A stretch of DNA of 64,000 nt from an uncultured Methanosarcinaceae archaeon (GCA_963727895.1 CAVSHT010000008.1:32001-96000); one strand, 5' to 3'. Positions 3,374-62,919 are shown, counted from the stretch's first letter. Numbers and translations are program-made. The notes: generated by a model not told the origin, from the letters alone.

Positions 3374-4045
3374 TTAAATTTCTCCGTAAAACTGCCTGTA
3401 ATCTTCAATTGCTTTTTTCGCCTGGGCAGGAAATTCTTTTTTCATATATTCAATGAATTCGTCCCTTGATTGAATATCCTTGAGGACTTCAAGCATACGG
3501 GCAGCAAATTTTTTTGATTCCATACTTCCTTTACGGAGTTCAAAAGAGAGGCAAAGAGCTTCTTTAGGAAAGTACTTTCTTCGAATCCAGGGAGAAACTG
3601 AGCCAAGAAGTACTCCGTCTTTTAAGATACTATAAGCTGGTACCCCTATGAGTTCGAATCTATCCTTTCCTGCCAGTTTTTCAAGGTTTTCGCTGAAATA
3701 GGAATGAAGTTCAATATATATATTGGGCTTTAACTCTTCAATAGCCTTGATAATCTTTTTTCCGATTCTAAGATAGTACCCAGGATTCAAGGTTGAAATA
3801 TACTTTCCCCGGTCTACAAGTGGAATTAAAGCCAGAGTCCCGGTTTCTGGTGGCTTTATGCCACTCAGAAGTCCAGTCGTATCTTGCCATTCGTCCCCGT
3901 GAAGACCTGCAACAAAGAGTCTGACTGGCTTTCCACTACCGTAAACTTTCATCCAGGCATCAGGTTGTAATTCTTGAAGCTTTTCTATGCATTCATGGCT
4001 TCGGGAAAAAGAATTTCTTGAATTCTCTATATCGTCATTGTTCAT
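3374..4045 (-). CDS. Conserved archaeal protein, DUF2119-like (Zn-peptidase-like HGxE motif)
   Basis: FVAGLHGDEW and YIELHSY motifs; ATG at 4045 chosen because the longer ORF overlaps the upstream gene. Confidence 0.7.
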   Translation of the reverse strand: MNNDDIENSRNSFSRSHECIEKLQELQPDAWMKVYGSGKPVRLFVAGLHGDEWQDTTGLLSGIKPPETGTLALIPLVDRGKYISTLNPGYYLRIGKKIIKAIEELKPNIYIELHSYFSENLEKLAGKDRFELIGVPAYSILKDGVLLGSVSPWIRRKYFPKEALCLSFELRKGSMESKKFAARMLEVLKDIQSRDEFIEYMKKEFPAQAKKAIEDYRQFYGEI

Positions 4046-25866: not shown

Positions 25867-28800
25867 ATAAACAGAATAAAACTTTTATTACTAACTTTTT
25901 TAATACTTATTTTAAGCTCCGGTATTGGGGCAGCTACTGAGATTCGTGTTAGTTCTGGGGGGTCTATACAGACCGCAGTGAATAGCGCAAATCCAGGTGA
26001 TACAATCATTGTGGGTCCAGGAACTTATACTGAAAACATTGTGATAACTAAAACTAGCAATCTGGTACTTATGTCATCATCGTCAAATCTTGATGACACG
26101 ATAATTGCTTCCAACGACACAACAAAAGATGTGATTTCTGCTAGTTCCAGAACCAATCTGGTAATTAAAGGATTTACAATTAGTGGAGCTGCAGCAGACC
26201 ACTCAGGAATCCATCTAAATAGCTGCAGGGACTGTACTATTGAGAATAATAAATTTTTAAATGATGATATGGGAACATATGTAGAATCTTGTATTAATAC
26301 TATAGTACGCAACAATAAGGCTACTAGAACTGATGAATCTAAAACAGGTAGGGGAATTAACATTGAAAGATCTGCATCTACCACTGTTTCGGGTAATACA
26401 GTTTCAAGTCACAAGTTTGGAATTTATTTTGCTGGATCCCAGCCTAATACTATCTCAGGAAACAATATAACTCAGAATAACAACACAGGCATAACCTTAG
26501 AGGATTCTACGAATAGTATAATAGAAAGCAATACCGTCAGCTTGAGTGGGGATAAAGGAATCTATCTGAAAAACTCAGGCAAGAGCAGCCTGAAAAATAA
26601 TATCCTTTCTTCCAATGGAGGAAATGGGATTAATCTCGAGTTAACTAATGAAACCAAAGTTCTGGATAACATAATTTTAGGTAATGCTAAAGATACCAAT
26701 ATCCATGGTTTATTCGTGAATACATGTAGAGATAATTACCTGCAAAATAACACGGTCTCAAACTGTCAATACGGCGTAGCTATGAGATACTCCGAAAATA
26801 ACAGTTTTGTAAACAATAATGCACATGACAATGATAGAGGTTTCTACGTATCCTATACATCAAGCAGAAATACTCTTTCGGGCAATAAAGCAAATTCTAA
26901 CAATAATGGTTTTATTATAGAGCGTGGAGCAAATAATAATATTTTGGAAAAGAATGAGGTAATTTCAAATTCAGCTAGTGGAGTCTCGCTGGATAATGCT
27001 ATCAGCAATACGATATCCAATAACAACGCATCTTTAAATGCCAGAGGTATTTATTTACTCTCATCATCCAGTAAAAATACGATTATAAGCAATACTGTAA
27101 ATTCTAACAAAAACGATGGAGTTGTTCTTGAGAATACAAGTGAAAATAACGTTACTGGCAATATTGTAAATTCAAATACCAGATACGGTATTTTTGTAAC
27201 AAGTTCCAACGATAGCTCTGTAGTAAATAACATAGCACAGAACAATGTAAGGGGTATCAGCCTGCAGGGGTCATTAAAGGATATAATCTCTAAAAATACA
27301 CTTACTGACTGTTCTGGTTCTGGATTATTCCTTACGACTTCCAGTGAGAATAACCTTTCTCAAAATGTAGTTTATAGCAATGGAGAAGGTATCTCTCTTG
27401 ACTCTTCCCCAAATAACGTAATCTCAAGCAATAATGTTAGTTCAAATGGTAATGGAATTTACATGTGCCCAAGAAGTATTGGAAATACAGTTTATGATAA
27501 CTATTTTAATAATACCAAAAATGCAAACATTAAAAATAACAAAAGCAACTGGAACATCGACAAAAAATCAGGCAAAAACATTATGAGGGGACCAAATCTT
27601 GGAGGTAATTTCTGGGGAAGTCCGTCGTTTATGGGTTTCTCTGATACTAATCTTGATAACGACAGTGATGGAATTATTGATATTCCCTTCGTTTCAGAAA
27701 ACGGTATCATCCCCTACGCTAACGGTAATATCACAGATAACTATCCGTTGATACGTGTAGTAATACCAATTCCAAGCTTTGATGTAAGCACTAAAAAAGG
27801 TTTTGTCCCTCTGACGGTTCGGTTTACGGATCACTCACAAAATGCGGATTCGATAAGCTGGGATGTTAATGGTGACGGAAAACCAGACAATACAAACAGC
27901 AGTTTTACTTATGTATACACTGTTCCTGGAACCTATAACGCTATTCTTTCAGCAACCAACAAAAATAGTACAGAAACAACAACTGTACAAATAATTGCAG
28001 AGGTATTTAAAGTTCAGCCGATTGCAGACTTTAATGCCAACCCAACGAGCGGTAATGTTCCTCTTTCTGTCCAGTTCACTGACCTTTCACAAAACACCAC
28101 ATCAAGGAACTGGAACTTTGGGGATGGGGCCACTTCAACCGATCAAAGTCTATCGCATACTTACAATATAGCAGGAACTTATACTGCTACCTTAACTGCA
28201 ACAAATGAAAATGGGACTTCTTCAAAGAGTACCTCAATAACTGTTACAGAACAAAGTAGTTCAGATGATTCAGGTAGTTCAAGCAGTTCAGATGATTCAA
28301 GCAGTGGAAGCAGCCACAGCAGCAGTAGTAGTGGCGGCGGCGGTGGTGCCGGCAGTTCCCCAGAAGCTCAAAGCAATGTTGAGGTAAAAGAAATTTCACA
28401 AGGTTATGTTACAAATGGCAAGCCTGTAGAGTTTGATTTCTCCAAGAATGCAACTTGTGTTGTGTATGCAAGCTTTGATGCAAAGAAGACAGCAGGTAAG
28501 ACAACAGCAATTGCAGAACAGTTAAAAGGCAAATCAATTCTGGTTTCAGTACTGAATTCGACTGAGATCTATAAGTACTTCAACATATGGGTTGGAACCG
28601 GCGGATTTGCAACCTCAAAGAATATTGAAAATCCAGTAGTGTGCTTCAAGGTTGAAAAATCCTGGATACAGGACAAGAAAATAGATCAAAATTCAATTGT
28701 CCTCTCTAGATACAGCGACAAAAAATGGTCACAGCTTCCTACAAAACTATTGAAGGAAGATGATAAATACCTGTATTTCACGGCACAAACCCCTGAATTC

Positions 28801-51375: not shown

Positions 51376-52115
51376 GGCATTGTTACTTAACTATATTTAA
51401 TTATTTATTTCTTTATTTCATCAATAGAATAACCGAGTACTTTAGCATTTCAAGACTCTTCGTATAACACTTTGTCTTTCTTCTCAACCTTGCCAGAAAG
51501 TGCCTCAATATGCTGTTATATCTTTCAACAGTATACGTTTCTGCTTTTGATTGAGTATGGATCTTTTCTGGAAGAAACTCTGCATATGCCCTCCAGTGAT
51601 CGGTCATCACTTCTCCAATCTCTTTTTTCTTCACTTTTTCCCAGAGTAGTTTTCCAGTTTCCGTTCCTCTGCTACCAAAAGAGCAGTTGATAAACTTTTT
51701 CCCAACTCTATCAACAGCAATCCAGATCCAGAAATATTTTGTTTGTTACTTATGTAAGTGTGCATCTCATCCATTTCAACAATAGATATCTCATTTTCGC
51801 TTTTTAGAGCCTCCAACTCCTGACCAAATTTCTTTATCCATTTTTGGACAGAAACATGACTCACCCCTAAAAATCGTCCTATTGAGCGAAAGCCCAATCC
51901 TTCAAGATAGAGTTGTAAAGCCTGTCTTTTTACAGAGACGGAAAAAGCAGTTGATTTTAGCTCTACTATATAGTTATAGCCACAATCAGAGCATTTGTAC
52001 CGTTGACGCCCGCCAACTATACCATTCTTTTTGTGACTGGAACTATTACATTTTGGACAGTTCATGCAGAAATATACTTTCTAATAATATATAACTATGT
52101 TTAAGTATCAATGCC
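51376..52115 (-). mobile_element. IS1-family element, copy 7 (slippery site disrupted)
   Basis: Terminal IRs; AAACAAAA replaces A8; no target duplication. Confidence 0.92.
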
Positions 52116-52960: not shown

Positions 52961-53680
52961 TATTGTTGTTTCCTCTTTTCCATATAACTTAGGCAACCAT
53001 TCAATTTGAAAGAAAAATTACCATATAAATATATGCTTTTTTACCAGTATTAGACATATTTTCATAACTGACTAAGGGGTGTAAAGATCCAGAAAAAAAG
53101 TATCCAGTTATTATATTTCCATTTTAATCATAAAATATCTCCCCACAGGGAAAGATCAATTTTATCAAAAAAGCCCTGTGAAGGGCTCCTTTTAAACTCC
53201 TTTTGAATCTGCAATAATCGCGGGTTTTTTAGTTTATAGTGAGTTCATGTCTATTTATCTGAAATTTTAAATTGCCACGTACCTATCTCAGAATTAGGGT
53301 TTTATAACAGGTAATACCCATTTTACCAAAATTGTGAAAATAGCTAATATAATAATAAGCCATATTACCCAACTGGGTAAGTTTTCGGGTGTTTCAACCA
53401 TAATAATAGATATTTCAGAATCATATAAAAAGACGTATAGATAGATTACTCCAACTTACCTTTTTCGAATCAATTTTAAGTTACCTGGAAAGGATATGAA
53501 AAAATTTTCATCTCTTATTAAGCGATCCATTTTCTGGCTATTTTCTTTAGTTTATAATTAACTTGAAAAATTTCCTTAAATCAGACAAATATCTAAAAAC
53601 ATATTTAGTGGAGATTCCAGCAGACAGCCAGCAGGAAAAATATCTAAAAACTGAATTCAATATCAATGGACTTGAATTCT

Positions 53681-53914
53681 TCACAAGTCCTTTTCTCCAA
53701 GCCACTCTTCTCTTGAAATACGAGATTGTTTAAGAATCCTTGTTAGAAGATCAATCCCAATTGCACCCTTATGTGGATTGGGAATCGTTAAAACAAGATC
53801 TCCTTTTCTCATAAAAGGATGCTTTCCGCCAGAATAAGATCCTTCAAATCCCAGTTCTTGCAATCTTTTAACAAAGGTTCGCCAATCGACAGGGACCAGC
53901 TTAGACAATTGCAA
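53681..53914 (-). CDS. hicA: HicA-family toxin (mRNA interferase)
   Basis: GGKHPFMRK...TIPNPH...LLTRILKQ motif. Confidence 0.85.
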   Translation of the reverse strand: MQLSKLVPVDWRTFVKRLQELGFEGSYSGGKHPFMRKGDLVLTIPNPHKGAIGIDLLTRILKQSRISREEWLGEKDL

Positions 53915-54152
53915 TATCTCCTGGTTCTTTGATTACATAGTCCCCGATCCGTGGCAGAGGTAGTCCATTTCTCAATCTGATAACGATCCATTCATCAATG
54001 ACTTCTTCCAAGTTTCTACGACATTCTTCAAGTGTCTTGCCTGTAGCCCATACACCCTCAAGTTCGGGAACTTCTCCATAATAAGGTTCTTCGTCATCGA
54101 TTATTTCGTATTTTGCTCTTTCAAGAGCCGCGTGGATATACTGGATGAGCAT
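53901..54152 (-). CDS. hicB: HicB-family antitoxin
   Basis: YYGEVPELEGVWATGKTLEEC motif; overlaps hicA. Confidence 0.85.
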   Translation of the reverse strand: MLIQYIHAALERAKYEIIDDEEPYYGEVPELEGVWATGKTLEECRRNLEEVIDEWIVIRLRNGLPLPRIGDYVIKEPGDIAIV

Positions 54153-54434
54153 AATTACACCTTTCCGAACTGATATATTTAGTTTTATACTGTTTAAATC
54201 TTATATAGGTTATGCGAATCGGGTTAGATCTGTAAGAATTACAGTCTTTAATTTCTCTTTTCTTGACAATTGTATTCGGGGAAAATTTCAGCAGACCATC
54301 GGCTGGAGAAATATATTAAAACTGAACGTGAAGAAAAGCTCACTTAAAAGTATATTCATAATTTATGTGAATTTTAAAAAAATAGAAAAAAAATAAGATA
54401 AGTGTTGATGCAAACTTAATTGCAGAAATAACAC

Positions 54435-54623
54435 TTAGTATCTTCTGTTTTCTCTGGGCGTCCTGTGGTTAGGAAGACAATCCCTGCAATAAACTGGTCT
54501 TTCTGGGTCAGGTTTGAAAGGCACTTCTGTCTCAACATTGCAGTCTGAACAGGTTGCTTTGTGCATTTCTCTTGGAGCGCCGAAATTAGAATTTCCTCTG
54601 AAGTTACTGTCATTAAAAGCCAT
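54435..54623 (-). CDS. CxxC-x17-CxxC zinc-ribbon protein, copy A
   Basis: CSDC-x17-CRDC with VPFKP..RPVY; SD AGGTGA. Confidence 0.9.
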   Translation of the reverse strand: MAFNDSNFRGNSNFGAPREMHKATCSDCNVETEVPFKPDPERPVYCRDCLPNHRTPRENRRY

Positions 54624-54675
54624 TTTTGTTTCACCTTTGTTTTTAGTTTTTGTTTTAGTTTTTATTAATTGTTTT

Positions 54676-54754
54676 AAAATAAGATTGTATAGAACTCTTT
54701 GATTAAAAACAAAAGTTGGTTTTTAATAACAGATTATTATACATCTCTTTATTT
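54676..54754 (-). promoter_or_regulatory. Conserved 5'-leader stem-loop, copy A (TATA box at 54780-54787)
   Basis: Inner stem ATTAAAAAC/GTTTTTAAT, outer GTATA/TATAC and AGAT/ATCT pairing; present before all five paralogues. Confidence 0.75.
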
Positions 54755-55192
54755 GTCAATATATATATAGCACTTAAACTATATAAATCTATTTATAAAC
54801 ATAGAGCACAATTTCTCAAATGAGAACAATTTCCAGATATAGTTTGCAGAAGAAGCAACAACCTATTTTCTGAGAACTCCTGAAAACAGAATTTGGTTAA
54901 CAGTTTTCCACTTTTGAAACAATCCTATAACAGAAAAAAATCAGTTTGATCTAAAAAAGCTGCCCTGCAAAGTGTCTCTCTTAAATCTACTAAAATAGCG
55001 GGTTTTTCAATTTCACTTTGATTCTTAAAAAACGTTTTCGGAGAGATTTCAGCATGCCGCCGGCAGAAAAATATATTTTAACTGAATCAAACGTGACAAA
55101 GAGTCCAGTTACAAAAGATATTCCACATTTGGTTTATTTTAAAAAATGGAAATGAAAAAAGTGTTGATGTAAACTTAGTTAACAAATAATAT

Positions 55193-55390
55193 TTAGTATC
55201 TATCTTGTCTGGGTTTTCTGTGTTTAGGAAGACATTCTCTACAGTAAACCGGTCTTTCCGGGTCAGGTTCAAAAGGTACTTCGGTTTCAACACCACAATC
55301 AGAACATTTTGTCTTGTGCATTTCCCTGGGAGCTCCAAAGCCTCCACGGTTGCTGTCTCTTCCTCTGCTTCCTCTGTCATTAAAGGCCAT
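55193..55390 (-). CDS. CxxC-x17-CxxC zinc-ribbon protein, copy B
   Basis: CSDC-x17-CREC; RG/RGG-rich N-terminus. Confidence 0.9.
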   Translation of the reverse strand: MAFNDRGSRGRDSNRGGFGAPREMHKTKCSDCGVETEVPFEPDPERPVYCRECLPKHRKPRQDRY

Positions 55391-55429
55391 TTGTTTTCAC
55401 CTTTGGTTTTAGTTGTTAGTTGTTGCTGA

Positions 55430-55509
55430 AAAATAAGATTGTATACGACTCTTTGGTTAAAAACAAAAATTGGTTTTTAACGACAGATTGTCATACATCT
55501 CTTTATTTT
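55430..55509 (-). promoter_or_regulatory. Conserved 5'-leader stem-loop, copy B (TATA box at 55535-55542)
   Basis: Inner stem GTTAAAAAC/GTTTTTAAC, compensatory relative to copy A. Confidence 0.75.
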
Positions 55510-56009
55510 CAATATCTATACATTGCATTTAAAATATATAAGTATTCCTATAATTATAAAAATATTTTCATTTAAATGAAAGAAAAATTTGTGATCAGGG
55601 TTTCTGGAGTAGATAAAATGCCTAAAATTCCAATTCCGGCTGATTATCCGATAAAGCAAAATTGTTGACCCTGCAAAATGTTATCTTTTAAACCTGCAAA
55701 AATTACGGGTTTTTTAGCTCTCTTTTCTTAGCAAATGTATAAGGGAAGATTTCAGAAGACCCGCGGCAGGAAAATTATCTCTAAATAGAAGAGGAAGTAA
55801 TAAACGAAATTTCAGCGTCCTTCTTTAGCAATTATAGACATTAAGTGCAAAATATATAAACAACTCATTGTCTATAGAACTTCTCCATGTCAACGCAGAC
55901 GCGTTCCTGCAGAAAAGTGAAATATATATTTCAGGCATCTTTTTTAGACGCCTTTATTTCAGATACCTATATAAAGCATCTTTATTCTGATACTTTTAGA
56001 TCAATAAAA

Positions 56010-56363
56010 TCAATACGTAATGTAGCCTTTTCGCTCAAGCCATTCGACCTGGGGTCTTGTGTATTTCCAGGTTACTTCGGCTTTGGAGTCTTGGACTTCC
56101 CAGGGATTGGCTATGACAACATCGCCTTCGTGAATCCACATTCTCTTCTTTTTAGAGCCCGGTATCCTTCCCATGCGGACAATTCCATCCATACACTGAA
56201 GTGTTACCCTTTTCGAGCCGAGTAAACATGCAACTGTTGCCAGGACTTCATTTCTATCCTTGCGGGGGATTCGTACCCTGGATACTTCCTGGGTACTTCC
56301 TGAGTTTACCGGTTTTGATGATCCTAATCTTCTTTTTCTGATAGTGCTTCTATAATTAGCCAG
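56010..56363 (-). CDS. eif1a: Archaeal translation initiation factor aIF1A paralogue 1 (probable CTG start)
   Basis: RVRIP...[33 protein letters not shown]...WKYT motif; GAGGA SD 6 nt before CTG. Confidence 0.92.
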
Positions 56364-56587
56364 GTTAATTCCTCGTTGGTATACTTTGATTAATTTTTGT
56401 AAAAGTTTGCTGTTGGGCAATTTGTACAGGTTCTCATTCTCGATATCGTTTTGTTCTTATTTTTCCTTGCCGCATGAGGGTGGAATAAATAAAGAAACAA
56501 AGAGAATAAACCAAAAAACAAAAAGAAAAGATGAATCAGGAGTTAATGTAAAATAATTACAAAATTAACGCCTAATACAGATTATCT

Positions 56588-56770
56588 TTAGAACTTCCTG
56601 TGGTTAGGAAGACAATCTCTGCAGTATACTGGCCTGCCTTCTGTGGGTTTGAACGGTACTTCGGTCTCAACACCGCAGTCAGAACAGGTCACTTTTGTCA
56701 TTTCCCTTGGTCCGCTGTTACCGCGGAAACCTCCGGAATTTCCCCTGAAATTTCTGTCATTAAAAGCCAT
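56588..56770 (-). CDS. CxxC-x17-CxxC zinc-ribbon protein, copy C
   Basis: Identical in protein to copy E despite several synonymous differences. Confidence 0.92.
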   Translation of the reverse strand: MAFNDRNFRGNSGGFRGNSGPREMTKVTCSDCGVETEVPFKPTEGRPVYCRDCLPNHRKF

Positions 56771-56809
56771 TTTCGTTTCACCTCCGCTCTAGCGGATAGT
56801 CAATAGTTT

Positions 56810-56886
56810 AAAAACAAGATTGTATAGACCCCTTGATTAAAAACGAAAATTGGTTTTTAATAACAGATTATACGTCTCTTTATTTT
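56810..56886 (-). promoter_or_regulatory. Conserved 5'-leader stem-loop, copy C (TATA box at 56912-56919)
   Basis: Same motif as copies A and B. Confidence 0.75.
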
Positions 56887-56936
56887 CAATACATACACTA
56901 TACATTCAAATTATATAAATGCATCTATACAATATA

Positions 56937-58760
56937 TAGTCACCACTTTAAATAATGCGACATTTTATGTTTAAATGTATGTTTCTCCCAAAATTCATTC
57001 ATTTCTTCCTTTAATGCTTCAATATTTTTAAATGATTTTATTGACGTTAAGTTTTCTCTTGTCACTTTCCAACAGTATTTTGTTGGGTTTCTATCTGGAG
57101 TAGCTGGAGGGAAAAATATTATTTTCAACCAATGCTTATTATTTTGATAAAATTCCTTTGCCTTTGCTGATCTATGCCATGTAGCTCTGTCCAGTAAAAG
57201 AAATATCCTTATCCCTATATCTCTTTGAAACTTGATTAATGATTTTAAGTAAGAGTCTGTATTCTGTGTAATTCCTAAATCATACCAATAAAACTCTCCA
57301 TTTTCAGTGTAGAATCCCCCAATATTGATTTTTGCTTTTGAACCACTTGTAAATTTAATAGGTTTTGAGCCCTTTATTGCCCAACATCTGGATCTATTTG
57401 AATCCACACAAAAATTACTGGAATTGGTAATTAAAAATAGATATATGTGCTTATAACATATATTTCTTCATGAACTGCCCAAAATGTAATAGTTCCAGTC
57501 ACAAAAAGAATGGTATAGTTGGTGGTCGTCAAAGGTACAAATGCCATGATTGTGGATATAACTATACAGTAGAGCTAAAATCAACTGCTTTTTCCACTTA
57601 TGTAAAAAAACAGGCTTTACAACTTTACCTTGAAGGATTGGGCTTTCGTTCAATAGGAAGAGTTTTAGGGGTGAGTCATGTTTCTGTCCAAAGATGGATC
57701 AAGAAATTTGGTCAGGAGTTAGAGGACCTAAAAAGTGAAAATGAAATATCTATTGTTGAAATGGATGAAATGCACACTTACATCGGTAACAAACAAAATA
57801 TTGCTGGATCTGGATTGCTGTTGATAGAGTTGAGAAAAAGTTCATCAGCTGCTCTTTTGGCAGCAGAGGAACGGAAACTGGAAAATTACTCTGGGAAAAA
57901 TTGAAGAAAAAAGAGATTGGAGAAGTGATGACAGATCACTGGAGAGCATATGCAGAGTTTCTTCCTGAAACGATTCATACTCAATCCAAAGCAGAAACGT
58001 ATACTGTTGAAGGATATAACAGCATATTGAGGCACTTTCTGGCAAGGTTGAGAAGAAAGACAAAGTGTTATACGAAGAGTCTTGAAATGCTAAAGTACTC
58101 GGTTATTCTATTGATGAAATACAGAAATAAAGAACTAGATATATTTAGATAACAATACCAAATTACTTTCATCAGGGGTAACGAATAAATGATTAGGGTT
58201 TAGTAATCTGTTTTTTGGACTTCTCTTATGAATTATTTTTTAAGCACCTCATTTCTTCTTTTAGATTGAGGTCGACATGTGATTTTTCTCAACCCTAAAT
58301 TTTTTAAAATTTGTCTCATTCTTGATTTGGAATAAGATACTCCAAATTTTTCCTTGACAAATTGAACTGCATCTTTTGTTTGCCAACCACGAGAATAAAC
58401 ATCATCTGTTGGTATAGGTTCTAAAAATGCCTCTCTTAACTCAGATAATTGTTCTGCAGTTAAAAAAGACTTGATTCCTCGACCAGGTTTACATTTAAGA
58501 CTAAACAAACCGTCGGTTTCAGCTCGTTTTATCCAGCGATGAACAGTTGAACGGTGAACTGAAAAATCGTCGGCAACTTTAGCGGGACTCAAACCATTTT
58601 TGATCAATAATAAGGCTTGAAGTTTAATCTACACGTTTTTGTTACAGGAATTTATGATAGCTGTAGAAATATCAGAAGTTGTAAACATTTCCAAACTCAT
58701 ATATAAAATTATATACTCATTTCAGGTATAATAATGTTGCAGTAAATACAGAGGTGACTA
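56937..58760 (-). mobile_element. IS630-family element (defective), interrupted by IS1 copy 8
   Basis: Imperfect ~30-bp IRs starting TAGTCACC, TA on both sides; HTH ORF 58233-58700 and DDE ORF (PDES, LLDRATWH, PDRNPTK). Confidence 0.88.
57420..58159 (+). mobile_element. IS1-family element, copy 8, nested in IS630
   Basis: 8-bp target duplication AAATTACT; slippery site disrupted. Confidence 0.93.
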
Positions 58761-59173
58761 TAGTACACAACTTCTCAAAAAAGAGAATTTATTTAAAAAT
58801 AATTTATGGAGAAGATAACAGCTTATTTCCTGATAGCTCCTGAAAACAGAATTCAGTTAACAGGTTTACTGGAAAGCAGCTCTACAAAGGAAAAGATCAC
58901 TGCTATCAAAAAAGGCCCTTCAAAATGCTTCTTATAAACCTGCAAAAATCACGGGTTTTCAAGATTTCTTTTATTAACAACCATACTCGGGGAATATTCC
59001 GGCAAGTTGCCGGCAGAAAAATATATTAACTGAATTAAACGTGAAAAAGAGGTTATTTAAATAGTATTTCTGGATTAATGTAACCTTCAAAATAGTATTT
59101 CTAGGTTAATGTGATTTTTAAAAAAGTGAAAAAGAAATAAGTGTTGATGCAAACTTAATTGCAGAAATAACAC

Positions 59174-59362
59174 TTAGTATCTTCTGTTTTCTCTGGGAGT
59201 CCTGTGGTTAGGAAGACATTCTCTGCAGTAAACCGGTCTTTCTGGGTCAGGTTTAAAAGGCACTTCGGTTTCAACACCACAATCAGAACAGGTTGTCTTA
59301 TGCATTTCTCTTGGAGCACCGAAATTAGAATTTCCTCTGAAGTTTCTGTCATTAAAAGCCAT
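59174..59362 (-). CDS. CxxC-x17-CxxC zinc-ribbon protein, copy D
   Basis: CSDC-x17-CREC; close paralogue of copy A. Confidence 0.9.
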   Translation of the reverse strand: MAFNDRNFRGNSNFGAPREMHKTTCSDCGVETEVPFKPDPERPVYCRECLPNHRTPRENRRY

Positions 59363-59413
59363 TTTTGTTTCACCTTTGTTTTATTTTTTGTTTTAGTTTT
59401 TATTAATTGTTTT

Positions 59414-59492
59414 AAAATAAGATTGTATAGAACTTTCTGTTTAAAATCAAAAATTGGTTTTTAACAACAGATGATTATACGGATCTTTATTT
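59414..59492 (-). promoter_or_regulatory. Conserved 5'-leader stem-loop, copy D (TATA box at 59520-59527)
   Basis: Same motif; TCTGT/ACAGA pairing. Confidence 0.72.
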
Positions 59493-59811
59493 ATCAACAC
59501 ACGTACATGAATCTTAATATATATAAATTTTTCTATAAGGGGAGAACCTTCCTCAAATGAGAACCTATCTTAGATACAGAGCTTATAGAACAAATAAAAA
59601 TGCCCCTTATATTCTGATTCCAGATGATCATTGATAAAGCAAATCTGAAGGTACTGCAAACACTCTCCCAAAATTGTATATAGAACCTTGCTCACATCAA
59701 CATTAGATATATTCCTGCAGAAAAGTAAAATGATGGGTTTCAGGCATCTTTTTCAGACACCTCTATTTCAATTATTTATTATTATATTCGGCATTTTTAT
59801 AATTTAAAAAC

Positions 59812-60162
59812 TTATTTAATATAGCCTTTCCGTTCGAGCCATTCTATCTGGGGCCTTGTGTATTTCCAGGTTATTTCGGCTTTGGAGTCCTGAATTTCCC
59901 ACGGGTTAGCAATAACAATATCGCCTTCACGAATCCACATTTTTTTATGTTTAGAGCCTGGGATTCTACCCATTCGTACAACTCCGTCCATACACTGAAG
60001 TGTTACTCTTTTCGAACCGAGTAAACACGCAACCGTTGCCAGGACTTCATTTCTGTCCTTGCGAGGGATTCTTACTCTGGATACTTCAGGGGCATCTCCT
60101 GATCTTACGGGATTTGTCGACCCTAATCTTTTTTTTCGAATAGTGCTTCTGTAATTCGCCAG
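59812..60162 (-). CDS. eif1a: aIF1A paralogue 2 (CTG start; absent from the ORF track)
   Basis: Hand translation: (M)[59 protein letters not shown]...WLERKGYIK*, 116 aa, uninterrupted; SD AAGGAG. Confidence 0.92.
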
Positions 60163-60406
60163 GTTAATTTCTCCTTGAGGATCTTGATTTAATTTGGATC
60201 TTGATTTAATTTATATCTAACTTGAAAATTGAATAGTTCGCATCGATTATTGTTCTCTATATTGTTTTGTTCTTACTTTTTCTGCTTCGATAGTGAAAAT
60301 AAGTAGAGAAACAAAGAGAACAAACCAAAAAAAACAAAAAGAAAAGATGAATCAGGGATTAATGTAAAACTTAATTACAAATTAATAGCACCTGATGCAG
60401 ATTATC

Positions 60407-60589
60407 TTAGAATTTCCTGTGGTTAGGAAGACAGTCTCTGCAGTATACTGGCCTACCTTCGGTGGGTTTGAATGGTACTTCTGTCTCAACACCGCAGTCG
60501 GAACAGGTCACTTTTGTCATTTCCCTTGGTCCGCTGTTACCGCGGAAACCTCCGGAATTTCCCCTGAAATTTCTGTCATTAAAAGCCAT
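60407..60589 (-). CDS. CxxC-x17-CxxC zinc-ribbon protein, copy E
   Basis: CSDC-x17-CRDC; SD GGAGGTGA. Confidence 0.92.
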   Translation of the reverse strand: MAFNDRNFRGNSGGFRGNSGPREMTKVTCSDCGVETEVPFKPTEGRPVYCRDCLPNHRKF

Positions 60590-60628
60590 TTTCGTTTCAC
60601 CTCCGCTCTAGCGGATAGTCAATAGTTT

Positions 60629-60706
60629 AAAAACAAGATTGTATATACCTTTAAATTAAAAAACAAAAATTGGTTTTTAATAACAGATTATACGTCTCTT
60701 TATTTT
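60629..60706 (-). promoter_or_regulatory. Conserved 5'-leader stem-loop, copy E (TATA box at 60732-60739)
   Basis: Same motif as copies A-D. Confidence 0.72.
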
Positions 60707-60949
60707 CAATAGATACCTTACACAGGCAAATTATATAAATGCATCTATACAAAGGAATATACTATTAAAGTGATAAGAAATTTTATTGTCAGTATTTATG
60801 GACGAAGTACTAAAGTCTAAACTTCTTATTTCGGTTGTTCATAGCTAAAGCAAAGTCAATTTTCTCTGAAAAGGGCTCCTTATAAATTCGCAAAAAGAAG
60901 CATAAACTAATACAAAAATTGAAATTTACAGATATTTTTACAAGTCAGG

Positions 60950-61650
60950 TCAGAGAACCAATTCACCCTTTATCCAAAGTTCATCAAATTTTGTCTTGAA
61001 TCGCTTTGCATATGATTCATCATATATTCTTGTCATACCGAGGTTTCTACTTATATTGAACTGGTCTTCAATATCTAGCAGGGTTATCTTAGAATCAATG
61101 ATTGCAAAATTGTATTCGGTTTCTATAATTTTTACTTCCATTATATCCTTAATATGGTGTTTAAATGACATATCTTCTATTAAATCAATAAGCTCTTTTA
61201 ATGATGGCAGTAATTGTGATCTCGGATCTAAAATTTTAACTTTTATGCCACGCTGTACTAAACTCAAATAAGCTTTGCAAAAGGTGGATATTGAAGCATC
61301 ATATAGCTCCGATCCTCCTGGCTTGTACTTAACATGGATTACAAAACATATTTCATGCTCGATTTTCTCAAAAGATGAAGTTACCATTAGATGAAGTTAC
61401 CATTTCTTTTAGTTCATTATTACGAAGCCTGTCAGGCCAGAAGACAGTTTCAACATTTTGTGGTAAATTGTCGTTGCAAAGTTCCCTTTCTATTTCATCA
61501 AATGTTTCTTTGAGCATTTTGAGTTCATTGAGTGTTTCTTCCTCTTTTCTTTTGTACATGAGTTTAAATGCGCTTTTAGGATCAACCGCCTGGTATCTCT
61601 TTGGTCGCAACGGTTGGATTTCGACAAGCTCATAGCTTTTGAGGACTTTG
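60950..61650 (-). pseudogene. TrmB-family transcriptional regulator remnant
   Basis: LVEIQPLRPKRYQAVDP and RGIKVKIL...FAIIDSK motifs; N-terminal HTH missing; 16-bp duplication at 61373-61404 shifts the frame. Confidence 0.7.
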
Positions 61651-61857
61651 AAAATTCGATTTTTTAATCATCCAGGTGTGTTTGGGAGAGATTTCAGCAA
61701 GCTGCTGGCAATGAAATATTTTTTAACTGTGTTGAATTGAAAATAAAATTCAAATTTCCATCCTTAGTAATTATAAATACCACTATAGCAGACTAATATG
61801 CGGGTTACTATAAAAAGCATTGAAAAATAATTATTTTGAATAGGTTGGTGTAATACT

Positions 61858-62919
61858 ATGAAAGGATTCGCAATGCTTGAAATTGGAAAAGTAGGCTGGA
61901 TTTATGCTGAAAAACCTTCCGCAGGACCATATGATGCAATCGTGAGGCCTATTGCGGTCGCACCGTGTACATCAGATGTTCATACTGTCTGGGAAGGTGC
62001 GCTTGGAAACCGCAAAAACATGATTTTAGGACACGAAGCTGTAGGTGTTATCGAAGAAATCGGGTCAGAGGTTAAAGACTTCAAACAAGGCGATAAAGTA
62101 ATTGTCCCTGCAATTACACCTGACTGGCGATCTATGGAGTCACAGGATGGAATGCCTATGCACTCAAATGGAATGCTTTCTGGATGGAAGTTTTCAAACT
62201 TCAAAAGTGGGGTCTTTGCAGAATATTTCCATGTAAATGATGCAGACATGAATTTAGCTCTACTTCCAAAAGGAATGCCCCTCGAACAGGCTGTCATGCT
62301 ATCAGATATGGCAACTACCGGAATACAGGGTGCAGAAATGGCAAATATTAAAACGGGCTCCACAGTTGCAGTCATAGGAATTGGTCCTGTTGGTCTAATG
62401 GCAGTGGCAGGTGCATCTATTCTTGGTGCAGGTAGGCTCATTGTAGTAGGAAGTCGGAAAGTCTGTGTTGATCTCGCTCTGGAATACGGAGCATCTGAAA
62501 TTATTGATTACAGAAAAGGTGGGCTTGTTGAACAGATTCTTGAAAAGACGAATGGAAAAGGTGTGGACTCTGTAATCATAGCAGGAGGAAATGAAAACAC
62601 AATTTCTGATGCAGTCAAAATTGTAAAACCCGGAGGCACGGTTTCAAACGTCAACTACTTCGGAACCGGAGATATACTGCCTATTCCACGTATAGAATGG
62701 GGATCTGGTATGTCTCACAAAGACATACGTGGGGGCTTGACAACCGGAGGTCGCCTGAGAATGGAAAGAATGGCAGACTTATGTACCTACGGAAGAATAA
62801 AACCAGAAAAAATGGCCACCCATGTGTTCAAAGGATTTGACAACGTGGAAAAGGCTCTTATGCTCATGAAAGAAAAACCGAGAGACCTGATCAAACCTGT
62901 TGTTCTTCTGGATGAATAA
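61858..62919 (+). CDS. adh: NADP-dependent zinc secondary alcohol dehydrogenase
   Basis: MKGFAML, PCTSDVH, GHEAVG, GIGPVG, GSR (NADP) and DLIKPVV motifs, as in the Thermoanaerobacter/Clostridium type. Confidence 0.9.
   Translation: MKGFAMLEIGKVGWIYAEKPSAGPYDAIVRPIAVAPCTSDVHTVWEGALGNRKNMILGHEAVGVIEEIGSEVKDFKQGDKVIVPAITPDWRSMESQDGMPMHSNGMLSGWKFSNFKSGVFAEYFHVNDADMNLALLPKGMPLEQAVMLSDMATTGIQGAEMANIKTGSTVAVIGIGPVGLMAVAGASILGAGRLIVVGSRKVCVDLALEYGASEIIDYRKGGLVEQILEKTNGKGVDSVIIAGGNENTISDAVKIVKPGGTVSNVNYFGTGDILPIPRIEWGSGMSHKDIRGGLTTGGRLRMERMADLCTYGRIKPEKMATHVFKGFDNVEKALMLMKEKPRDLIKPVVLLDE

Follow-up and report, generated by a model that had tools for sequence, protein, structure and literature searches.

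Why does an archaeal genome carry five copies of a very small zinc protein interleaved with two extra genes for the translation initiation factor aIF1A, and what might these proteins do together? The question is raised by a stretch of 64,000 nucleotides (nt) from an uncultured Methanosarcinaceae archaeon (GCA_963727895.1 CAVSHT010000008.1:32001-96000), called here the window, with all positions counted from its first letter. We analysed the mini-protein genes (Zn genes), their leaders and the adjacent aIF1A genes, and compared them with related loci in other genomes. The array is best read as a co-amplified cassette in which abundant Arg/Gly-rich zinc mini-proteins, probably associated with RNA or ribosomes, would be coupled to specialised aIF1A paralogues and placed under post-transcriptional control; the probability of this reading is put at about 0.45, somewhat short of even odds.

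The array of mini-protein and aIF1A genes

The five mini-protein genes (A to E; 60-65 amino acids) and both aIF1A genes lie on the minus strand in the order E-aIF1A-D-[IS]-C-aIF1A-B-A, where IS stands for insertion sequence; this layout, described in the original prediction, was recovered from the open reading frames (ORFs) and from profile matches. Gene A (54435-54623, 62 amino acids) is of the 'HK/PDPERP...PRENRRY' subtype and gene D (59174-59362, 62 amino acids) is its paralogue with 88% DNA identity, while genes C (56588-56770) and E (60407-60589) encode the same 60-residue protein of the 'TK/PTEGRP...HRKF' subtype and gene B (55193-55390) encodes 65 residues. The TK subtype is found upstream of aIF1A and the HK subtype downstream. 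All five proteins match TIGR04272 ('CxxC-x17-CxxC domain', NCBIfam; 68.3-73.5 bits, curated cut-off 36 bits) and PF23477 (zf_Tbcl_2, Pfam scan; 63.4-69.4 bits, cut-off 27 bits), protein A with 68.3 and 64.1 bits, respectively. Model positions 1-37 of 37 are covered in each of the five matches, and the CxxC-x17-CxxC cysteine spacing can be read directly in the five translations. The identity of the C and E proteins had been taken as a mark of purifying selection, and the DNA supports this, because the two genes show seven synonymous and no non-synonymous differences; genes A and D are separated by 13 synonymous changes and five in non-synonymous codons. Each mini-gene had also been described as having its own TATA box, leader and Shine-Dalgarno sequence, and we found a TTTATATA-like box 145-165 nt 5' of each mini-gene ATG and GGTGA 6-8 nt before it, in addition to oligo-T tracts 3' of each gene.

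The array is a segmental tandem duplication, with repeat families recurring at a spacing of 3799-3819 base pairs (bp) and 89% identity between the two [Zn-aIF1A] units over 1099 aligned columns. Between the units sits a nested insertion (56940-58607), in which an IS1-like element interrupts an IS630-like one. The IS630-like transposase is divided into an N-terminal helix-turn-helix (HTH) part (58233-58607, minus strand; PF13592, PF13565) and a C-terminal DDE_3 part (56940-57407, minus strand; PF13358, 69.9 bits); the IS1-like element (57470-58152, plus strand) contains an HTH/InsA-like ORF and a DDE_Tnp_IS1 ORF, both recognised with Pfam. A locus of a close relative with 98% protein identity (L012) has the same array, in which the D-type and C-type genes are not separated by an insertion. 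The 144-residue ORF of the IS1-like element has a second copy at 51631-52065, about 5.4 kb away.

Linkage of the two gene families across genomes

The profile search of the 3.67 Mb genome returned seven Zn genes and four aIF1A genes. Three of the four aIF1A genes lie 345-406 nt from a Zn gene and all seven Zn genes are paired; a third locus on another contig again reads Zn-aIF1A-Zn, and the only unlinked aIF1A is the copy with the highest Pfam eIF-1a score. Since so few genes of either kind are present in a genome of this size, the pairing is far beyond chance; the probability that a given aIF1A gene falls within 2 kb of one of about seven Zn genes in 3.7 Mb is below 1%.

In other genomes the linkage proposed in the original prediction is recurrent, being present in 13 of 61 Methanosarcinaceae genomes, in Methanocellaceae, in some Methanoregula and in Methanosarcina mazei, and at the same time patchy, with two of 25 genomes elsewhere among the Zn positions listed. 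Within the Methanosarcinaceae, where the Zn family occurs in 39 of the 61 genomes and 11 of 16 genera, 32 of 114 aIF1A matches have a Zn gene within 2 kb (two Zn rows below the cut-off being excluded), and these belong to four genera: the genus of the window (6/6 genomes), g13 (5/5), g2 (1/2) and g7 (1/3). The genera g3, g4, g8, g9, g10, g14 and g16 contain Zn genes with no aIF1A within 2 kb. Searching 185,579 species genomes with the Zn alignment yielded 76 loci, of which 21 have an aIF1A within 4 kb, among them loci of Methanoregula, Methanocellaceae and another Methanomicrobiales genome, and the gene orders vary: Methanosarcina has Zn-aIF1A-Zn, in Methanomicrobiales the Zn gene comes after aIF1A at a distance of 87-575 nt, and in Methanocella it comes before aIF1A, twice in one genome. 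The published order in M. mazei is Zn-aIF1A-Zn-aIF1A (PMC11456600). As the loci with differing orders were picked for their linkage, 25 Zn-bearing genomes from 15 other families form a less biased sample; here two of three genomes of family f10 hold a convergent Zn-aIF1A pair 240 nt apart, positions having been compared by eye, and in two further genomes the genes are 4.0 and 4.5 kb apart. Copy numbers of Zn and aIF1A genes are correlated (Spearman 0.74 over 60 related and thus non-independent genomes). The linkage is recurrent yet patchy and follows the amplification of aIF1A. In f10 we also observed three Zn genes in tight tandem, about 200 nt from start to start, without aIF1A (G083:C1:582095-582607; also G148, G162, G133, G126 and G111), which implies that the Zn family was amplified on its own as well.

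The aIF1A paralogues and their start codons

Paralogue 1 (56010-56363, minus strand; 117 amino acids, type 2 'LANYRS', TIGR00523 120.7 bits) and paralogue 2 (59812-60162, minus strand; 116 amino acids, type 2, 118.9 bits) both pass the eIF-1A equivalog cut-off of TIGR00523 (102.9 bits) and contain the S1-like OB domain PF01176 (64.1 bits); the unlinked copy of the same genome scores 144.3 bits with TIGR00523. In a tree of 91 columns all linked Methanosarcinaceae copies fall in one clade (support 99/96), which also contains the second, unlinked aIF1A of other genera and corresponds to type 2, with the N-terminus (M/L)ANYRS. The two copies of the window are sisters (98/84), and those of Methanoregula and Methanocella cluster by taxon.

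At the conserved N-terminus neither gene of the window offers an ATG, GTG or TTG, and homology starts at the CTG that follows GAGGAATTAAC. Judged from this pattern, both genes most likely start at CTG, at 56361-56363 in paralogue 1 (7 nt after GAGG) and at 60160-60162 in paralogue 2, and such a start explains that ORF calling gave one over-long and one truncated ORF. Among 43 aligned rows of type-2 aIF1A, which include some genes fetched twice, the start codon is CTG in 34, ATG in six, TTG in two and TTA in one, and GAGG or GGAGG always precedes it by about 7 nt. Housekeeping type-1 aIF1A of Methanosarcinaceae has CTG in 13 rows, TTG once and ATG once. In Methanomicrobiales, the Zn-linked copies start with ATT or ATA and the others with CTG or ATG; Methanomicrobiales and Methanocellales taken together use CUG, AUU, AUA, UUG or AUG. 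At two loci (L071 and L097) the ATT or CTG follows directly on an in-frame stop, so that translation cannot begin further upstream there. In RefSeq, M. mazei MM_RS17915 is annotated at CTG and MM_2336 is placed at an internal ATG (PMC11456600); the latter seems to be a mis-annotation, and the finding points to probable annotation errors at aIF1A starts in reference genomes. Our literature searches found no description of aIF1A with CUG start codons. Translation from CUG would be sensitive to start-codon stringency, and the codons used suggest that near-cognate initiation at this initiation-factor gene is regulated.

The mini-protein family

A phmmer search of 1.84 billion representatives (E <= 1e-3) places the mini-proteins in a family of 3,826 clusters at 50% identity from archaea and bacteria. 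The core, P-R-E-M-x4-C-x2-C-G-x4-V-P-F-x-P-x3-R-P-V-Y-C-x2-C, hardly varies across Methanosarcina, Chloroflexi, Planctomycetota and Patescibacteria; in 34 aligned relatives C29, C32 and C50 never change, and C53 shows a conservation of at least 90%. A Gly/Arg-rich stretch always precedes the zinc core, in the bacterial forms too, which carry an extra N-terminal PF13451 finger. Such a composition is typical of RNA-binding proteins, and we infer from it that the mini-proteins may bind RNA. Ten of ten long relatives consist of 2-5 tandem domains with R/D/G/S-rich linkers, and the fusions seen among longer relatives are limited to PF13451 and tandem copies. A possible fusion to a DEAD-box helicase was not recovered: no helicase was present in 94 longer matches (106-205 amino acids), in the top 150 phmmer rows (all up to 423 amino acids) or in the Pfam annotation of ten long relatives. 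The archaeal 'long' forms of the family turned out to be over-extended ORF calls, and M. mazei sORF_06 (PMC11456600), which has four cysteines, is a different protein outside the family.

The Haloferax volcanii C(P)XCG proteins HVO_2753 and HVO_0758 are likewise archaeal zinc-binding proteins of fewer than 70 residues whose function is mostly not known. They belong to another family, and the Foldseek match to HVO_2753 (6ydh) was not significant (E 3.6); the mini-proteins of the window lack the C(P)XCG motif pair, and the Haloferax proteins have neither an RG-rich tail nor a reported linkage to aIF1A.

Orthologues in Methanosarcina mazei

The closest characterised relatives are the M. mazei CxxC-x17-CxxC proteins A00184 and A01980 and their six paralogues, which belong to the same TIGR04272/PF23477 family, are likewise multi-copy and are near-identical to those of the window, which indicates that the window stems from a close Methanosarcina relative: they have 60-73 residues, the N-terminus MAFNDR and RG-rich tails, and share the arrangement with aIF1A. 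Protein B is near-identical to MM_RS00095, from which it differs in three residues, and A is of the MM_RS00075 type (PMC11456600). In M. mazei the eight small proteins were always detected at the highest confidence by mass spectrometry, and zinc binding of A00184 and A01980 was demonstrated using inductively coupled plasma mass spectrometry (PMC12704099, 2025). The original prediction described the family as having no assigned function; a function is still not assigned, but the family is no longer undescribed, as zinc binding and high abundance have meanwhile been published (PMC12704099).

Ribosome profiling (RIBO) data of M. mazei give the Zn genes MM_RS12120 and MM_2335 baseMean values of 42,993 and 11,740, with log2 fold changes under nitrogen limitation of -2.0 and -0.87, and the adjacent aIF1A genes MM_2336 and MM_RS17915 values of 3,271 and 1,019 (-1.9 and -3.1), compared with 4,154 (-4.1) for ribosomal protein L4 and 4,683 (-2.7) for L31e (PMC11456600). 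Ribosome occupancy of the Zn orthologues at 37 °C is thus up to about 10 times that of L4 and L31e, and two other members, MM_0021 and MM_RS00095, have translation efficiencies of 11-18 (PMC11456600). With high expression at 37 °C and a drop under nitrogen limitation that ribosomal proteins and aIF1A share, the Zn genes behave as a growth-linked housekeeping component of the expression machinery. Initiation factors, gene neighbours and cold are not mentioned in the main text of PMC12704099, nor are initiation factors in that of PMC11456600. The linkage to aIF1A and its distribution, the two subtypes, the helix between leader and start region, the IS-split duplication and the near-cognate aIF1A starts appear to be new here.

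Leaders of the mini-protein genes

The best-conserved block of the leaders (CTGTYRTTAAAAAC...) is, almost letter for letter, the reverse complement of the spacer, the ATG and the first five codons of the same gene. A motif search located this anti-start box (CTGTTATTAAAAACC...) in all five leaders of the window, on the minus strand: at 54719-54732 in leader A (core of the box, complementary to codons 2-6 of gene A; RNAduplex -21.8 kcal/mol), at 55473-55486 in leader B and 59457-59470 in leader D (both also by RNAduplex), at 56853-56866 in leader C (56771-56890) and at 60673-60686 in leader E (60590-60712), which is preceded by a TATA-like box near 60730-60739. The motif occurs nine times in the window (five leaders and four start regions) against 0.48 expected. 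It is found about 95-110 nt upstream in 38 of 38 Methanosarcina-type copies, and in all of these the duplex of box and start region reaches -18.6 to -26.8 kcal/mol (RNAduplex), with a median z of -5.7 relative to shuffled leaders. In the aligned leaders 94.4% of the helix cells are paired, and for the whole leader structure the value is 90.1% versus 40-56% with partner columns slid. Codon 2 varies together with the box (GCU with ACCA, GGU with ACUCCA, AGU with ACUUCA). The C/E subtype has an added CCGCU/AGCGG hairpin that reaches into the Shine-Dalgarno sequence, which it abuts in leader C. Four of the five leaders of the window fold better than shuffles (z -2.4 to -4.1); the long structured leaders of the original prediction were accordingly borne out by folding, duplex energies and shuffle z, and the start region is predicted to be occluded by the leader helix. 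In 57 copies from other lineages the anti-start helix was not found (median z 0.2, two copies at z <= -3).

Metatranscriptome contigs from four runs of four studies cover the mini-genes, their leaders and the aIF1A genes, ending at 55499 and 55513 in leader B, with adapter ends at 56860 and 56878 in leader C and reaching 60694 in leader E; such contigs give no transcript ends, strand or levels, and multi-gene contigs were not counted as co-transcription. Strong duplex scores elsewhere in the window (e.g. near 26120) fall in coding sequence and look like chance, and an Rfam scan of 53000-62000 at E <= 1 returned a chance miRNA row only.

In the A/D subtype (54624-54760 and 59363-59500, minus strand) a GTG or TTG located 27 nt after the TATA box opens an upstream ORF (uORF) of 18-19 codons over the anti-start box, with the consensus xLxNKExYNxLLLKTNFCF. 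M. mazei sORF_018 is an A/D-type uORF and was curated as translated in Ribo-seq (PMC11456600). The uORF may be leaderless and its translation may open the helix. As a general feature of the leaders a conserved uORF was rejected, a canonical in-frame start being present in only 22 of 38 leaders and often 5' of the likely transcription start. A leader element distinct from that of Methanosarcina was observed in Methanomicrobiales Zn genes (L023-L099), where a small hairpin ACAGU...ACUGU lies 5-40 nt before the ATG, with apparently compensatory variants (GCAG...CUGC) in some genomes.

Neighbouring genes and repeats

Directly downstream of gene A lies a toxin-antitoxin pair (53681-54152, minus strand) of a HicB-like protein (UPF0150, 113 bits) and HicA. 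The array is flanked on the other side by a DUF7436-like ORF (60950-61387, just under the cut-off) and a zinc-type alcohol dehydrogenase (61858-62919); the same dehydrogenase adjoins the array in locus L012. Intergenic repeats of 49-51 nt, in two families of four and five copies, flank the mini-genes (53199-53249, 54977-55084, 55684-55787, 58930-59034 and 61681-61729); the families are paired about 55 nt apart at three places, and one of them holds a GCCGGC-centred palindrome.

Interpretation of the array

The co-amplified cassette takes its support from the family membership, purifying selection, co-amplification and recurrent adjacency seen here, and from what the literature describes for near-identical M. 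mazei orthologues, namely that they bind zinc, are translated at very high levels and vary together with ribosomal proteins. According to this proposal, the tandemly duplicated and IS-interrupted array would be a unit in which Gly/Arg-rich zinc mini-proteins flank extra type-2 aIF1A paralogues, bind RNA or ribosomes and act with these paralogues or in the same process, presumably translation initiation or mRNA handling. Synthesis of the mini-proteins would be set post-transcriptionally, as the leader box of Methanosarcina-type genes could pair with the stretch between the end of the Shine-Dalgarno sequence and about +17 and so occlude the AUG, while in the C/E subtype a second hairpin may cover the Shine-Dalgarno sequence itself; the CUG start would make the translation of aIF1A responsive to start-codon stringency.

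Bacterial infC, the gene for IF3, autoregulates through its AUU start codon. Like infC, aIF1A encodes an initiation factor and has a near-cognate start codon that is conserved; its product is a homologue of IF1/eIF1A and not of IF3, and for aIF1A the feedback would be a parallel by analogy. A more elaborate version of the proposal, which we consider unlikely, is a three-part accessory layer of archaeal translation initiation, not recognised so far and made up of abundant ribosome- or mRNA-bound zinc cofactors with the ANYRS-type aIF1A, an infC-like loop acting through CUG, AUU and AUA starts, and mini-protein mRNAs as reporter or target. In such a layer the near-cognate aIF1A starts would form an infC-like feedback that sets start-codon stringency, and the AUG buried in a leader helix of about 25 bp would be a built-in reporter or target of unwinding and initiation capacity.

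Several observations weigh against the cassette. Binding to RNA, ribosomes or aIF1A has been shown for no member of the family, and the mini-proteins are mildly basic only (pI 7.7-8.9), short of the 'basic proteins' of the original prediction. Structure and fold searches gave no useful match for the mini-proteins: Foldseek against the PDB with an AlphaFold2 model (pLDDT 71.7) returned no row at E <= 0.001; the best Z of a VIA wide search was 2.5, which for so small a domain is uninformative, as are the best PDB profile match (E 0.15) and the sole named neighbour in the ESM Atlas (PF13451 at 0.81). Folding an aIF1A paralogue with a mini-protein as a complex scored 0.00, which is evidence neither way. 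In the Methanosarcinaceae 79 of 117 Zn matches are not beside aIF1A, in the sample of other families 23 of 25 genomes have no aIF1A within 2 kb of a Zn gene among the 150 of 240 Zn positions listed, and elsewhere the genes nearest to Zn genes are of various kinds (cytidine deaminase, radical SAM, ParA/Fer4, TspO and one ZIP zinc transporter). In the 91-column tree the linked aIF1A genes from the three orders fall into more than one clade, so that either the adjacency arose several times or the tree lacks resolving power. Covariation in the leader helix is sparse, with two pairs changing on both sides and 89 of 500 shuffles reaching the observed count, and the helix therefore rests on conservation and complementarity. 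Moreover, the very high translation efficiency measured in M. mazei fits poorly with a helix that covers the AUG; the helix is either actively opened or has another role, e.g. in transcript stability.

Among the competing explanations, the one we rate highest, at odds still well below those of the cassette, is that segmental duplication produced the linkage as a side effect and that the mini-proteins are unrelated to translation, serving for instance in zinc buffering or storage or in generic metal binding. Zinc binding is indeed their sole demonstrated property (PMC12704099), the copies are numerous and abundant, most of them do not lie beside aIF1A, single loci adjoin a ZIP transporter, NikR, VIT1 or P-type ATPases, and the two units of the window are a recent duplication, as the sister position of their aIF1A copies indicates. 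Against this, the adjacency recurs in three orders in differing orientations and spacings, with a chance expectation below 1% for a given aIF1A gene and about seven Zn genes in 3.7 Mb, and in M. mazei the Zn genes are regulated together with the translation apparatus (PMC11456600). The almost invariant PREM, VPFxP and RPVY motifs, kept from archaea to bacteria and free of cysteine, argue for a conserved macromolecular partner rather than for metal chelation alone. A partner in transcription or chromatin, such that the mini-protein would be a TFIIB- or RNA polymerase-like zinc ribbon that binds DNA or RNA polymerase, was offered by the M. mazei authors merely as a starting hypothesis; among the eight M. 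mazei members one carries the annotation of an RNA polymerase subunit, and the cysteine spacing recurs in TFIIB-family ribbons (PMC12704099). High abundance would also fit a chromatin protein. We nevertheless regard this as improbable, given that the recurrent neighbour is a translation factor and no transcription gene, that Pfam gives no match to TFIIB or RNA polymerase ribbons at E <= 0.01, and that the Foldseek PDB, VIA wide and PDB profile searches gave no significant match to solved TFIIB or RNA polymerase subunits, a negative that carries little weight for so small a domain.

The original prediction had itself suggested a possible cold-shock or stress module; in such a module the mini-proteins and extra aIF1A would be cold-induced RNA chaperones and the leader a cspA-like thermosensor. 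The mRNA of cspA has a long thermosensing 5' untranslated region, and bacterial cold-shock logic also includes infA/IF1. The array resembles this logic in its small, abundant, multi-copy proteins, for which nucleic-acid binding is likely, in its long and structured leaders that involve the start region, and in an initiation factor that shares the OB fold (PF01176) with bacterial IF1 and CspA; in addition, tandem zinc domains with Gly/Arg-rich linkers resemble the plant glycine-rich zinc-knuckle RNA chaperones, a likeness that would also suit a cold-shock role. Unlike CspA, the mini-proteins are zinc treble-clef or ribbon domains, and the Pfam scan gave no match of any mini-protein to the cold-shock domain (PF00313, an OB fold; E <= 0.01) or to the TRAM domain. 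Our literature searches found no temperature data or cold regulation for any member, and in the available M. mazei data expression is growth-linked, being very high at 37 °C and dropping with ribosomal proteins as growth slows under nitrogen limitation (PMC11456600). An AU-rich leader helix is expected to be more stable, not less, in the cold, and it is confined to Methanosarcina-type genes of a widespread family. A cold or stress role was thus not upheld and has a low probability, no better than that of a role in transcription, while the linkage to aIF1A, the structured leaders and the purifying selection that the prediction put forward were supported.

Few genes of the model methanogen M. 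mazei are translated as heavily as those of the mini-proteins, yet their function is not known, and the recurrent tie to extra copies of aIF1A is the first testable functional lead for the family. If the non-AUG starts of archaeal aIF1A are autoregulatory, they would be an archaeal counterpart of the infC circuit, and such a circuit, if true, would bear on start-codon fidelity in initiation of the archaeal and eukaryotic type.

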